64,000 bases of DNA. Source: Escherichia coli (GTDB taxonomy: Bacteria; Pseudomonadota; Gammaproteobacteria; Enterobacterales; Enterobacteriaceae). Positions within the stretch are counted from its first letter, which is position 1, and each line of letters starts with the position of its first letter. This document shows positions 2,895 to 59,650 of this stretch, piece by piece. The notes under the pieces were generated by a model. That model made no database searches, was not told where the DNA came from, and was given only the letters and a program-made list of their open reading frames with translations. A program made the position numbers and the translations under genes. The DNA is taken from NCBI RefSeq assembly GCF_030384885.1, contig NZ_CP128613.1. One strand, written 5' to 3'.

Positions 2895-2919
2895 ACATAA
2901 TAGCGGGAACATGTCAGCC

Positions 2920-2958
2920 TGATAAGACGCGTCAGGCCGGATAAGACGCGTCAGCGTC
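2920..2958. repeat. REP-type palindromic element(s) between ypfG and tktB
   Basis: gcctgataagacgcgtcaggc / ggataagacgcgtc...gcatccggc imperfect palindromes typical of enterobacterial REP. Confidence 0.6.
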
Positions 2959-3014
2959 GCATCCGGCAATCAGCATCCGGCAATCAGCATCCGGCAATCA
3001 GCATCCGGCAATCA
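2959..3014. repeat. Perfect 14-bp tandem repeat (gcatccggcaatca) x4, plus partial fifth unit
   Basis: Read directly: four identical adjacent 14-mers 2959-3014, ending 3 bp before the tktB stop codon. Confidence 0.9.
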
Positions 3015-3017
3015 CCA

Positions 3018-5021
3018 TCAGGCACCTTTCACTCCCAGTACCTTATGCGCTTTTGCCACAATATTCTCGGCGGTAAAGCCAAAGAACGGGAACAGCTTAT
3101 CCGCAGGAGCAGATTCCCCATAACCCGTCATCCCGACAATTGCCCCTTTCAGACCAACATATTTGTACCAGTAATCGGCGATGCCTGCTTCCACCGCCAC
3201 GCGAGCCGCAACGTTAGAAGGCAACACCGACTCACGATATTCCTCATCCTGGGCGTCGAAAATATCGGTCGAGGGCAGGGAAACAACGCGTACATTGCGA
3301 CCTTCTCCCGCTAATTTCTCTGCCGCTTGCAGGGTGATTTCCATCTCTGAACCAGTGGCAATCAAAATAATATCCGGCTTGCCGCCGCTGTCTTTCAACA
3401 CATAACCACCGCGGGCAATCTCTTTTACCTGATCTGGCGTACGTTCCACCTGGGCCAGATTCTGCCTTGAGAGGATAAGCGCCGTCGGCCCGTTGTGACG
3501 CTCGACCGCCAGCTTCCAGCCCACCGCAGCTTCCACCTGATCACACGGTCGCCAGGTGCTAAAATTCGGCGTCAGGCGCAGACTGGCCAGTTGCTCAACG
3601 GCCTGGTGCGTCGGACCATCTTCCCCTAAGCCAATAGAGTCGTGGGTATAAACCATAATCTGCCGCGCTTTCATCAGTGCCGCCATCCGCGCGGCGTTAC
3701 GGGCGTATTCAACAAACATCAGGAACGTCGCGGTATACGGCACGAAGCCGCCGTGGTGCGCAATGCCATTGGCGATAGCGGTCATACCAAATTCACGCAC
3801 CCCGTAGTGAATATAGTTGCCCGCCGGATCTTCCTTCAGCGACACAGAACCTTTCCAGATGGTGAGGTTGCTGGGAGCCAGATCCGCCGAACCGCCGAGC
3901 AACTCAGGCAGCATGGGCCCGTAAGCGTTAAGCGTATTTTGCGAAGCCTTACGGGTCGCGATTTTCGCCGGATTCGCCTGCAACTCATTGATATATTTCT
4001 GCGTCGTTTTTTCCCAGTCTTTTGGTAAACCACCGCTCATCCGGCGAGTAAACTCTTCTGCCAGTTGCGGATGAGCCTTTTTATACGCGGCAAACTTCTC
4101 ATTCCAGCTCTGCTGTGCTTTTTCGCCTTTTTCGCGAGCGTCCCAGGCGTGATAAATCTCTTTGGGGATCTCAAATGGCGGATGATGCCAGCCCAGTTTC
4201 TGTCGAGCCAGCGCCACCTCTTCTTCACCCAGCGGTGCGCCGTGCGCCTCTTCTTTACCTGCTTTATTCGGTGAACCAAAGCCAATCACCGTACGGCAGA
4301 TAATCAGCGATGGCTTATCTTTTACGCTTTGCGCTTCAAGAATCGCTTCCTTCACCGCCTGCGGATCGTGACCGTCGATTTCATGGATCACATGCCAGTG
4401 ATAGGCTTCAAAACGTTTTGCCGTATCGTCGGTAAACCAGCCTTCGGTTTCACCGTCGATGGAAATACCATTGTGATCGTAAAAACCAATCAGCTTGCCC
4501 AGCCCCAGCGTGCCCGCCAGCGAACAGACTTCGTGAGAAATACCTTCCATCAGGCAGCCGTCACCCATAAACACATAGGTGAAGTGATCGACAATTTCAT
4601 GATCCGGCTGGTTAAACTGCGCCGCCAGTGTACGTTCTGCTATCGCCAGTCCGACCGCGTTCGCCAAACCTTGTCCAAGTGGACCGGTGGTGGTTTCAAC
4701 ACCAGGCGTATAGCCAATCTCCGGGTGACCAGGGGTTTTCGAATGCAACTGACGGAAGTTCTTCAGCTCTTCCAGCGGCAGGTCGTAACCGGTCAGATGA
4801 AGCAAACTGTAGAGCAGCATCGACGCGTGACCGTTGGAGAGAATAAAGCGGTCGCGATCATACCAGGTTGGATCGGTGGGGTTATGTTTAAGAAAATCGT
4901 TCCACAGCACTTCGGCAATATCAGCCATGCCCATCGGCGCGCCGGGATGACCAGAATTGGCTTTTTGTACCGCATCCATACTGAGCGCGCGAATCGCATT
5001 GGCAAGGTCTTTTCGGGACAT
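3018..5021 (-). CDS. tktB: Transketolase 2
   Basis: ORF 3018-5084 in track; start placed at [18 protein letters not shown] (ATG 5021); transketolase TPP-binding motifs; talA-tktB pairing. Confidence 0.9.
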
Positions 5022-16331: not shown

Positions 16332-16333
16332 AT

Positions 16334-16517
<184 letters not shown>

Positions 16518-21464: not shown

Positions 21465-22124
21465 ATGCCAGCTTTAGATTTGATTCGACCGTCGGTAACC
21501 GCCATGCGGGTGATTGCCTCTGTTAACGCCGAATTTGCGCGTGAACTGAAATTGCCGCCGCATATTCGTAGCCTCGGGCTGATTTCTGCTGATTCCGATG
21601 ACGTCACCTACATTGCGGCTGACGAAGCGACCAAGCAGGCGATGGTTGAAGTCGTGTATGGTCGCTCGCTGTATGCGGGAGCTGCACACGGGCCGTCACC
21701 GACTGCCGGTGAAGTGCTGATTATGCTCGGGGGGCCAAACCCGGCGGAAGTGCGTGCCGGTCTGGATGCGATGGTTGCGCATATTGAAAATGGCGCTGCT
21801 TTCCAGTGGGCTAATGATGCAGAAAACACAGCCTTCCTGGCGCATGTCGTTTCGCGTACCGGCTCTTATCTCTCATCAACCGCCGGGATCACGCTTGGCG
21901 ATCCGATGGCGTATCTGGTGGCACCGCCGCTGGAAGCGACCTACGGCATTGATGCAGCCCTGAAATCTGCCGACGTGCAGCTGGTGACCTATGTCCCGCC
22001 ACCGTCTGAAACCAACTACTCGGCAGCATTTTTAACCGGTAGCCAGGCCGCGTGTAAAGCAGCCTGTAACGCCTTTACCGATGCAGTGCTGGAAATCGCG
22101 CGTAATCCAATCCAGCGTGCGTAA
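21465..22124 (+). CDS. eutL: Microcompartment shell protein EutL (tandem BMC)
   Basis: 219-aa ORF; operon position. Confidence 0.9.
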
Positions 22125-22136
22125 CGGAGGTTGCCG

Positions 22137-22637
22137 ATGATCAATGCACTGGGATTGCTGGAAGTGGACGGCATGGTCGCCGCGATAGATGCAGCTGATG
22201 CCATGCTCAAAGCAGCTAACGTTCGTCTGCTCAGTCACGAAGTGCTTGACCCTGGTCGCCTAACGCTAGTGGTGGAAGGCGATCTGGCGGCGTGTCGTGC
22301 GGCGCTGGACGCAGGTTGTGCTGCCGCGATGCGTACCGGGCGTGTCATCAGCCGTAAGGAGATCGGTCGGCCAGACGATGACACCCAGTGGCTGGTTACT
22401 GGCTTTAACCGCCAGCCGAAGCAACCCGTAAAGGAACCCGACGCGCCAGTTATCGTCGGGGAATCTGCTGACGAGTTGTTGGCGCTGTTAACATCAGTAC
22501 GTCAGGGAATGACGGCAGGAGAAGTGGCTGCCCACTTTGGCTGGCCGCTGGAAAAAGCCAGAAATGCGCTCGAACAGCTCTTTTCTGCCGGGACGTTACG
22601 TAAACGCAGTAGTCGTTATCGTCTCAAGCCCCATTAA
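22137..22637 (+). CDS. eutK: Microcompartment shell protein EutK
   Basis: Start placed at MINALGLLEVDG; N-terminal BMC domain and C-terminal basic tail. Confidence 0.85.
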   Translation: MINALGLLEVDGMVAAIDAADAMLKAANVRLLSHEVLDPGRLTLVVEGDLAACRAALDAGCAAAMRTGRVISRKEIGRPDDDTQWLVTGFNRQPKQPVKEPDAPVIVGESADELLALLTSVRQGMTAGEVAAHFGWPLEKARNALEQLFSAGTLRKRSSRYRLKPH

Positions 22638-22682
22638 CCTGTCGGAGGTGCCGGGTGTCCTACAACACCCGGCATTAACATC

Positions 22683-23735
22683 ATGAAAAAGACCCGTACA
22701 GCCAATTTGCACCATCTTTATCATGAACCCTTACCCGAAAACCTGAAGCTCACGCCGAAGGTCGAAGTGGATAATGTTCATCAACGACAGACAACGGATG
22801 TCTATGAACATGCTTTGACGATTACCGCCTGGCAGCAGATTTACGATCAGCTGCATCCGGGCAAATTTCATGGTGAATTTACGGAAATTCTGCTCGATGA
22901 TATTCAGGTTTTCCGTGAATACACGGGGCTGGCGCTGCGTCAGTCGTGCCTGGTCTGGCCGAACTCGTTCTGGTTTGGCATTCCGGCGACGCGCGGTGAG
23001 CAGGGATTTATCGGTTCGCAATGTCTGGGAAGCGCAGAAATTGCGACACGCCCTGGAGGAACCGAGTTTGAATTAAGTACGCCGGACGATTACACGATCC
23101 TTGGCGTGGTGCTTTCTGAAGATGTCATCACCCGTCAGGCTAACTTTTTGCATAACCCGGAAAGGGTGCTGCATATGTTACGTAACCAGTCGGCGCTGGA
23201 AGTGAAAGAGCAGCATAAAGCCGCGCTGTGGGGCTTTGTCCAACAGGCTCTGGCGACATTTTGCGAGAACCCGGAAAATCTCCATCAGCCTGCAGTGCGA
23301 AAAGTGCTGGGGGATAATTTGCTAATGGCGATGGGGGCGATGCTGGAAGAAGCGCAGCCAATGATGACGGCGGAAAGTATAAGTCATCAGAGTTACCGCC
23401 GATTGCTTTCCCGGGCCCGTGAATATGTGCTGGAAAACATGTCCGAACCAGTGACGGTACTGGACTTGTGTAATCAACTGCACGTCAGCCGCCGCACCTT
23501 GCAAAACGCATTTCACGCTATTTTGGGCATTGGCCCAAACGCGTGGCTGAAACGCATTCGCCTGAACGCCGTGCGCCGTGAACTGATTAGCCCGTGGTCG
23601 CAAAGTATGACGGTAAAAGACGCCGCCATGCAGTGGGGATTCTGGCATCTTGGGCAGTTTGCCACGGATTATCAGCAATTGTTTGCAGAAAAGCCTTCAC
23701 TGACGCTGCATCAGCGGATGCAGGAACTGGAGTGA
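22683..23735 (+). CDS. eutR: AraC-family transcriptional activator of the eut operon
   Basis: 350-aa ORF; C-terminal AraC-type helix-turn-helix; last gene of eut operon. Confidence 0.9.
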
Positions 23736-49104: not shown

Positions 49105-49333
49105 AATCAGGATGAGCTCCTTTTGACCAATCCCAGGAAAATTCTGCGTATTTTACCGGGTAATTGCGCAATGGACAGTTAGGATATGTTCGAAAAAACA
49201 GCAAAAAGCACGATTTCATCTATCTTTGTGCTGTGAAAGTTAATAGTGCACTTGCACTTGAGGTAATCGGCAAATACTCTTAGTGAGTAAATGTTTGCCG
49301 TGGTGGCAAGGTGTTAGAACAACAGAGAATATA

Positions 49334-50332
49334 ATGATGCAGGATTTGCGTCTGATATTAATCATTGTTGGCGCGATCGCCATAATCGCTTTACTGGTAC
49401 ATGGTTTCTGGACCAGCCGTAAAGAACGATCTTCTATGTTCCGCGATCGGCCATTAAAACGAATGAAGTCAAAACGTGACGACGATTCTTATGACGAGGA
49501 TGTCGAAGATGATGAGGGCGTTGGTGAGGTTCGTGTTCACCGCGTGAATCATGCCCCGGCTAACGCCCAGGAGCATGAGGCTGCTCGTCCGTCGCCGCAA
49601 CACCAGTACCAACCGCCTTATGCGTCTGCGCAGCCGCGTCAACCGGTCCAGCAGCCGCCTGAAGCGCAGGTACCGCCGCAACATGCTCCGCGTCCAACGC
49701 AGCCGGTGCAGCAACCCGTGCAGCAGCCTGCCTATCAGCCTCAGCCTGAACAGCCGTTGCAGCAGCCAGTTTCGCCACAGGTCGCGTCAGCGCCGCAGCC
49801 AGTGCATTCAGCGCCGCAACCGGCACAACAGGCTTTCCAGCCTGCAGAACCCGTAGCGGCACCACAGCCTGAGCCTGTCGCGGAACCGACTCCAGTTGTG
49901 GATAAGCCGAAGCGCAAAGAAGCAGTGATCATCATGAACGTCGCGGCGCATCACGGTAGCGAGCTAAACGGTGAACTGCTTCTTAACAGCATTCAACAAG
50001 CGGGCTTCATTTTTGGCGATATGAATATTTACCATCGTCATCTTAGCCCGGATGGCAGCGGCCCGGCGTTATTCAGCCTGGCGAATATGGTGAAACCGGG
50101 AACCTTCGATCCTGAAATGAAGGATTTCACTACTCCGGGTGTCACTATCTTTATGCAGGTACCGTCTTACGGTGACGAGCTGCAGAACTTTAAGCTGATG
50201 CTGCAATCTGCGCAGCATATTGCCGATGAAGTGGGCGGTGTAGTGCTTGACGATCAGCGCCGTATGATGACTCCGCAGAAATTGCGCGAGTACCAGGACA
50301 TCATCCGCGAAGTCAAAGACGCCAACGCCTGA
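49334..50332 (+). CDS. zipA: Cell-division protein ZipA
   Basis: Start placed at [17 protein letters not shown] (ATG 49334); N-terminal TM anchor, long P/Q-rich linker, C-terminal FtsZ-binding domain. Confidence 0.9.
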
Positions 50333-50363
50333 TACACTTAAGGCAAATTAACTCCTCTTCGAA

Positions 50364-50385
50364 CCCCCGCTTGTCGGGGGTTTTT
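50364..50385 (+). terminator. Hairpin plus T-tract between zipA and ligA
   Basis: cccccg-cttgt-cggggg-ttttt. Confidence 0.6.
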
Positions 50386-59253: not shown

Positions 59254-59329
59254 TGGTGGGTCGTGCAGGATTCGAACCTGCGACCAATTGATTAAAAGTC
59301 AACTGCTCTACCAACTGAGCTAACGACCC
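59254..59329 (-). tRNA. lysV: tRNA-Lys (anticodon UUU)
   Basis: Reverse complement matches GGGTCGTTAGCTCAGTTGGTAGAGCAGTTGACTTTTAATCAATTGGTCGCAGGTTCGAATCCTGCACGACCCACCA. Confidence 0.95.
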
Positions 59330-59333
59330 GAAG

Positions 59334-59409
59334 TGGTGGGTGATGACGGGATCGAACCGCCGACCCCCTCCTTGTAAGGGAGGTGCTCTCCCAGCTGAGC
59401 TAATCACCC
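59334..59409 (-). tRNA. valY: tRNA-Val (anticodon UAC)
   Basis: Reverse complement matches GGGTGATTAGCTCAGCTGGGAGAGCACCTCCCTTACAAGGAGGGGGTCGGCGGTTCGATCCCGTCATCACCCACCA; gene name by position. Confidence 0.95.
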
Positions 59410-59455
59410 ACTTCGGTACTTCACATTTTTACAAGAAATCTAGCTGGCGAGAAAG

Positions 59456-59531
59456 TGGTGGGTGATGACGGGATCGAACCGCCGACCCCCTCCTTGTAAG
59501 GGAGGTGCTCTCCCAGCTGAGCTAATCACCC
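59456..59531 (-). tRNA. valX: tRNA-Val (anticodon UAC)
   Basis: Identical 76-nt tRNA-Val sequence; gene name by position. Confidence 0.95.
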
Positions 59532-59574
59532 ACTTCTCAATTTCTTGCTACACGGCGGAGACTACATAAGTAGT

Positions 59575-59650
59575 TGGTGGGTGATGACGGGATCGAACCG
59601 CCGACCCCCTCCTTGTAAGGGAGGTGCTCTCCCAGCTGAGCTAATCACCC
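59575..59650 (-). tRNA. valU: tRNA-Val (anticodon UAC)
   Basis: Identical 76-nt tRNA-Val sequence; gene name by position. Confidence 0.95.

Follow-up and report, generated by a model that had tools for sequence, protein, structure and literature searches.

The zipA gene in a 64-kb stretch of an Escherichia coli chromosome carries the long form of a common linker-length polymorphism

How long is the ZipA protein of Escherichia coli, and is a copy that exceeds the K-12 length anything out of the ordinary? ZipA is the inner-membrane anchor of the FtsZ ring, in which a transmembrane helix at the N-terminus is joined to an FtsZ-binding domain at the C-terminus by a disordered tether of ~100 residues rich in Pro and Gln. 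In a stretch of 64,000 nucleotides of an E. coli chromosome (contig NZ_CP128613.1; hereafter the window), a first-pass annotation singled out the zipA linker as a possible length variant, about four codons longer than the 328-residue protein of K-12. The comparisons described below indicate that the zipA of the window is very probably an ordinary "long" allele of E. coli, that the K-12 type probably arose by deletion and that the difference in length is most likely effectively neutral.

The zipA coding sequence occupies positions 49334..50332 on the + strand (999 nt including the stop codon, 332 aa), and the identical sequence is recorded in RefSeq as WP_001353054.1. The region highlighted by the first-pass annotation, 49560-49900, lies inside a single long + strand frame of the ORF list and corresponds to ZipA residues 76-189, spanning the P/Q domain. 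The mechanically derived frame begins at a GTG at 49283 and so adds 17 codons (window 49283-49333) ahead of the annotated zipA ATG. The RefSeq start for the identical sequence in strain 2013C-4282 is the ATG equivalent to window position 49334, and the K-12 annotation, like RefSeq, places the start of zipA at the ATG corresponding to 49334; the 17-codon extension is most likely an artefact of choosing the longest frame. The protein of the window thus begins MMQDL, and its 332 residues are counted from there. Its identity as ZipA is given by the TIGR02205 septum_zipA equivalog, which matches residues 4-324 over profile positions 1-284 of 284 with 414.5 bits against a cut-off of 119.65, by the Pfam family PF04354 (ZipA_C; residues 198-321, E = 3.2e-46) and by the PDB entries 1f7w, 1f47 and 1f46, which match residues 189-332 with E = 1e-88 to 1e-92; the full-length K-12 ZipA entry 9iue also matches. 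The gene order cysZ (-), zipA (+), ligA (+) is the same in the window, in K-12 and in 2013C-4282. Judging by the identity of its binding domain with that of the K-12 protein, the gene product presumably binds FtsZ and is needed for division.

The exact allele of the window was found at 100% identity in 2013C-4282 only, and only four records reach at least 99% identity over the whole gene. The chromosome of this strain (NZ_CP027579.1; human stool, USA) is 100% identical across the searched parts of the window, with window positions 1-25000 corresponding to 5002546-5027545 of the record and zipA to 21835-22833, so that the window crosses the coordinate origin of the record. Over the first 25 kb the runner-up among the complete genomes is just 98.0% identical, and one record only reaches at least 99%. 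At least for this region, 2013C-4282 looks like the lone representative of its own lineage among 5,426 complete genomes.

Where in the protein does the window differ from K-12? The domain limits were adopted from a published description in which the ZipA helix comprises residues 7-28, the charged region residues 29-85 and the P/Q domain K-12 residues 86-185, the latter being an intrinsically unstructured flexible tether (PMC6904479, citing Ohashi et al., 2002). The disorder of the linker is likewise taken from this source, and the layout of the N-terminus follows from identity with K-12. On this basis the membrane anchor together with the charged region spans residues 1-85 (49334..49588, + strand), the Pro/Gln-rich linker residues 86-189 (49589..49900, +) and the FtsZ-binding globular domain residues 190-332 (49901..50329, +). 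The N-terminal region and the C-terminal domain are identical in protein sequence to those of K-12, and the linker, 55% of which is Pro+Gln, contains the indel and all five amino-acid differences. In window numbering these substitutions are R120 for H, T122 for A, S152 for P, T186 for A and V189 for M in K-12. Non-synonymous differences between window and K-12 are accordingly distributed 0, 5 and 0 over N-terminal region, linker and C-terminal domain, and synonymous differences 1, 5-6 and 6. This pattern of substitution indicates strong purifying selection on the functional ends of ZipA and a linker that drifts freely in sequence and length.

Pairwise alignment with K-12 zipA, the check that the first-pass annotation had proposed, gave different lengths for the two genes, 987 nt and 328 aa for MG1655 (b2412) versus 999 nt and 332 aa for the window, and the estimate of about four extra codons turned out to be exact. 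Protein and DNA alignments agree on one indel only, of 12 nt or four codons, inside the linker, and the four-residue gap recurs in the alignment with PDB 9iue. K-12 ZipA (NP_416907.1) resides in the same cysZ-zipA-ligA context and has an identical anchor, charged region and FtsZ-binding domain, with a DNA identity of 98.3% over the aligned positions, but it lacks the second VQQP and carries the five linker substitutions. At the site itself, the window contains a first 12-nt copy GTGCAGCAACCC (VQQP; 49706..49717, +), which the alignment marks as the block missing in K-12, directly followed by a second copy GTGCAGCAGCCT (VQQP; 49718..49729, +), which differs from the first at two synonymous positions. 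Read across the site, the window has CAGCCG-GTGCAGCAACCC-GTGCAGCAGCCT-GCC and K-12 has CAGCCG-GTGCAGCAGCCT-GCC. The K-12 junction is obtained by removing any 12 nt that start between 49706 and 49714, and these nine equivalent registers imply an 8-nt microhomology, GTGCAGCA, common to both 12-nt copies. The copies, starting at 49706 and 49718, are spaced by the length of the indel, which is the direct-repeat arrangement of a slippage-type event. The two GTGCAGCA octamers, whose spacing is 12 nt, would then have given rise to the K-12-type allele through replication slippage or deletion at short homology, and this allele would subsequently have spread with the lineage that gave rise to phylogroups A and B1.

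How common are the two lengths? The E. coli set comprised 5,426 complete genomes (5,427 chromosome records), and whole zipA matches were obtained in 5,425 of the 5,426. A 200-nt query from the window centred on the indel, for which alleles are told apart by identity band, aligned with a 12-nt gap in 3,042 records and without it in 2,384, as many as 64 of which are partial matches; the reciprocal 188-nt query of the short type produced the gap in 2,322 records. The long form (999 nt, 332 aa) is therefore carried by ~2,322 records (~43%), the short form (987 nt, 328 aa) by ~3,042 (~56%) and other linker forms by ~60 (~1%). Hence the designation as a length variant stands relative to K-12, but only against this laboratory strain, as the long form is encoded by ~43% of the complete genomes and is probably older. 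It is an already catalogued, common polymorphism, with named RefSeq protein records in thousands of genomes. The 332-aa alleles of O157:H7 (WP_001299866.1), U12A (WP_001296279.1) and ampC_0069 (WP_001317975.1) are also 999 nt long and contain the GTGCAGCAACCC-GTGCAGCAGCCT pair, differing from the window by one to four substitutions in the linker and at a small number of synonymous positions. Strains with the long form include O157:H7, O55:H7, O25b:H4-ST131, UTI89, S88, APEC O1, IHE3034, IAI39, SMS-3-5 and CE10, and strains with the short form K-12, BL21(DE3), O111:H8 and O103. We take the former to belong to phylogroups B2, E and F and the latter to A and B1, as is generally held for these reference strains. 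Most short alleles are K-12-like, one SNP apart. The short alleles fell into identity classes of 92.0% and 91.5%, and a reading of these classes as two frequent independent deletions was discarded, since the second junction is rare (at most 11 records). The ~60 complete genomes with other linker forms either fall below 80% coverage in the central linker, with more than 40 nt missing, or have additional gaps in the flanks, and only four of them are accounted for by the deletions of 60 and 111 nt described below.

What makes the linker prone to such changes? The first-pass annotation had attributed this to imperfect cagccg/cagcag repeats. The hexamers are indeed dense, with four CAGCCG and three CAGCAG in 49560-49900 compared to a window average of 0.21 each per 341 nt, i.e., they are ~15-20 times denser in the linker than in the window overall, and short degenerate repeats do exist. 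However, the hexamers do not form an array. Shuffling the order of the codons equalled the observed number of CAGCCG in 28% and of CAGCAG in 71% of the trials, and since shuffled codons reach the same counts, the density follows from composition (55% Pro+Gln, mostly encoded by CCG and CAG). With the minimum score set to 30, Tandem Repeats Finder reported no array in 49300-50350. A tandem repeat array of the VNTR or contingency-locus type was consequently rejected, given the empty output of this program, the presence of imperfect two-copy pairs only and a hexamer count no higher than in the shuffle. The linker is coding sequence of biased composition in which short, degenerate direct repeats occur. 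Among these are a degenerate 26-nt direct-repeat family in 49631..49767 (+) with copies at 49631, 49703 and 49742, each of which ends in CAGCAGCC, and two 21-nt units in tandem at 49787 and 49808 (49787..49828, +) that encode SAPQPVH and SAPQPAQ. The indels map to these short degenerate direct repeats, namely the 26-nt family, the 21-nt pair and the 12-nt pair, and the rare larger in-frame deletions have their endpoints in the 26-nt family. The rarer changes in length probably arose by the same mechanism as proposed for the K-12 type, acting on other short repeats of the biased sequence.

Length changes at this linker have occurred independently more than once, as is evident from two 12-nt junctions on different SNP haplotypes and from 60-, 111- and 21-nt events. 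The zipA of strain 2012C-4221 is also 987 nt long but retains GTGCAGCAA-CCT (haplotype table of 13 alleles), and its SNPs on both flanks are those of the long-type haplotype (ampC_0069 / Z30). Its junction (CAA-CCT) requires the deletion to start at 49715-49717 and is carried by at most 11 records. The different junction on a long-type haplotype implies that this 12-nt deletion was independent of that in K-12. Strain EM10-18-28 has lost 111 nt (37 codons), a size equal to the spacing of copies 1 and 3 of the 26-nt family, and encodes a ZipA of 295 aa. A 60-nt deletion between CAGCAGCC at 49649 and 49721 (copies 1 and 2) was predicted from the repeats and then found in three genomes, ECCHD184, EH2252 and HCP5S3_I4, which originate from chicken, human and pig in different countries and have different ligA alleles; their zipA of 927 nt encodes 308 aa (WP_032211564.1), with 20 residues deleted. 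For both deletions, junction queries of 39-45 nt were designed such that non-carriers yield no 28-nt seed, and by its junction-specific query the 111-nt deletion is present in EM10-18-28 alone. An earlier 200-nt query across the 111-nt junction was non-discriminating, as normal genomes were returned as two joined pieces at 100% identity, although it did reveal UTI89, S88, IAI39 and others as long-type. In the related Escherichia sp. MOD1-EC7003, one of the two 21-nt units is missing. None of these length changes within E. coli (two of 12 nt, one of 60 nt and one of 111 nt) disrupts the reading frame or extends beyond the linker. In Escherichia, Salmonella and Citrobacter taken together, ZipA lengths lie between 320 and 350 aa, again with all of the variation in length located in the linker, which bears out the expectation that linkers of this kind expand and contract. 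At the upper end, the 350-aa ZipA of Citrobacter portucalensis has a block of ~13 residues duplicated (QQPMQHQPVAPQV).

Which of the two common lengths is the older one? For this comparison, zipA sequences from E. albertii, three other Escherichia lineages, Salmonella and Citrobacter were obtained by a DNA-pattern scan of species-representative genomes. E. albertii, Escherichia lineage L009 and most Citrobacter sequences have two QPVQQP-type units at the site of the indel, and Escherichia sp. E1V33 has three. Moreover, the first copy of the window (...CAA CCC) resembles unit 1 of the outgroups (...CAA CCG) and the second copy (...CAG CCT) resembles unit 2 (...CAG CCG). Two synonymous differences separate the copies, and each has its own counterpart among the outgroup units, which indicates that the pair is old and not a fresh duplication. 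The long two-unit form is thus probably the older state and K-12 carries a derived deletion, a polarity derived by parsimony from a small number of outgroups, for a stretch that is difficult to align and prone to indels. The opposite direction, in which an ancestor with one unit, as in K-12, gained a tandem duplication of the 12-nt VQQP block through slippage in E. coli, appears unlikely. It could draw on MOD1-EC7003, which at 97% zipA identity is the nearest to E. coli of the sequences obtained from outside the species and carries a single unit, QPGQQP, and on the fact that slippage adds units as readily as it removes them. Yet the junction of MOD1-EC7003 keeps CAA CCG, unlike that of K-12, which suggests that its single unit results from a separate deletion of its own, at least two units are found in E. 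albertii, in Escherichia L009 and E1V33 and in Citrobacter, and a fresh duplication would begin with identical copies, whereas those of the window differ at 2 of 12 positions.

Does the difference in length matter for division? Four residues in a tether of ~104 amount to ~4% of its contour length (~1.5 nm). Considering that tethers 20 and 37 residues shorter occur in sequenced isolates and that a change of four residues is small, there is probably no consequence, and the four-residue difference is most likely without measurable effect on division and effectively neutral. Other disordered tethers of the divisome, for example the C-terminal linker of FtsZ, are low-complexity, poorly conserved spacers that vary in length and sequence between species. 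As generally described, the FtsZ linker resembles that of ZipA in being a spacer that joins a folded domain to an anchoring element, but it belongs to a different protein and has a different composition. In the literature searched, neither experimental work on ZipA linker length, engineered or otherwise, nor a description of natural ZipA length polymorphism was found.

It could be imagined instead that the two lengths are adaptive, tuning the distance between Z ring and membrane or the dynamics of the ring by lineage and being kept by selection. Both alleles do occur at high frequency (43% and 56%), and the split between long and short appears to track major lineages. The same lineage-structured split would, however, be expected from one ancient neutral event passed on by descent, the change concerns 4 of ~104 disordered residues, and amino-acid substitutions, too, accumulate in the linker only; linkers that are 20 and 37 residues shorter, along with the 320-350 aa found in related genera, argue for a loose constraint on length. 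The evidence gathered here gives no pointer to selection on ZipA linker length, and the adaptive reading is very improbable. The same low probability applies to its broader version, in which the spacing or dynamics of ring and membrane would vary with all four lengths (328 and 332 aa, and the rarer 295 and 308 aa) and the split would reflect selection on division geometry. Least probable of all, to a degree that makes it negligible, is that the extra 12 nt are an assembly or sequencing artefact of a repetitive, GC-rich stretch. The linker region of zipA is repetitive and has a G+C content of 66%, but the 12-nt block is in frame, RefSeq annotates an intact zipA, and the 999-nt form with consistent linked SNPs in ~2,300 independently sequenced complete genomes refutes such a reading. 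The preferred explanation remains an ordinary long allele, probably shortened by deletion in the K-12 type.

The biological importance of a routine in-frame indel in the disordered spacer of an essential division protein is very small. Nevertheless, the 328 aa of K-12 should not be regarded as "the" length of ZipA, and residue numbers in 332-aa strains are shifted by four after approximately position 123. The indel may serve as a lineage marker that distinguishes A/B1 (short) from B2/E/F (long), for which the basis is a handful of named strains. Furthermore, the natural 295- and 308-aa alleles provide a ready series for testing how long a tether ZipA needs.

Several other elements of the window were recorded alongside. 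The interval from the zipA stop codon to the start of ligA (50403) contains a hairpin rich in G+C, AACCCCCGCTTGTCGGGGGTT, with TTT after it, at 50361..50385 (+); it folds with -15.5 kcal/mol (z = -3.26) and resembles an intrinsic terminator or attenuator, although a consensus terminator scan did not list it. Intergenic repeat clusters are present at 2913-3024 (19-nt and 14-nt units) and at 16333-16517 (a 100-nt unit in 1.9 copies), and the motifs GCCGGATGCGACGC and GCCTGATAAGACGC in these clusters suggest REP/BIME-type elements, which are ordinary for E. coli. Finally, tRNA genes are clustered at 59254-59650 (-), with Lys(ttt)-Val(tac) x3, and at 62349-62539 (+), with Ala(ggc) x2; both clusters match annotated tRNA genes flanking gltX, and an 'RtT sRNA' is annotated beside the Lys tRNA.
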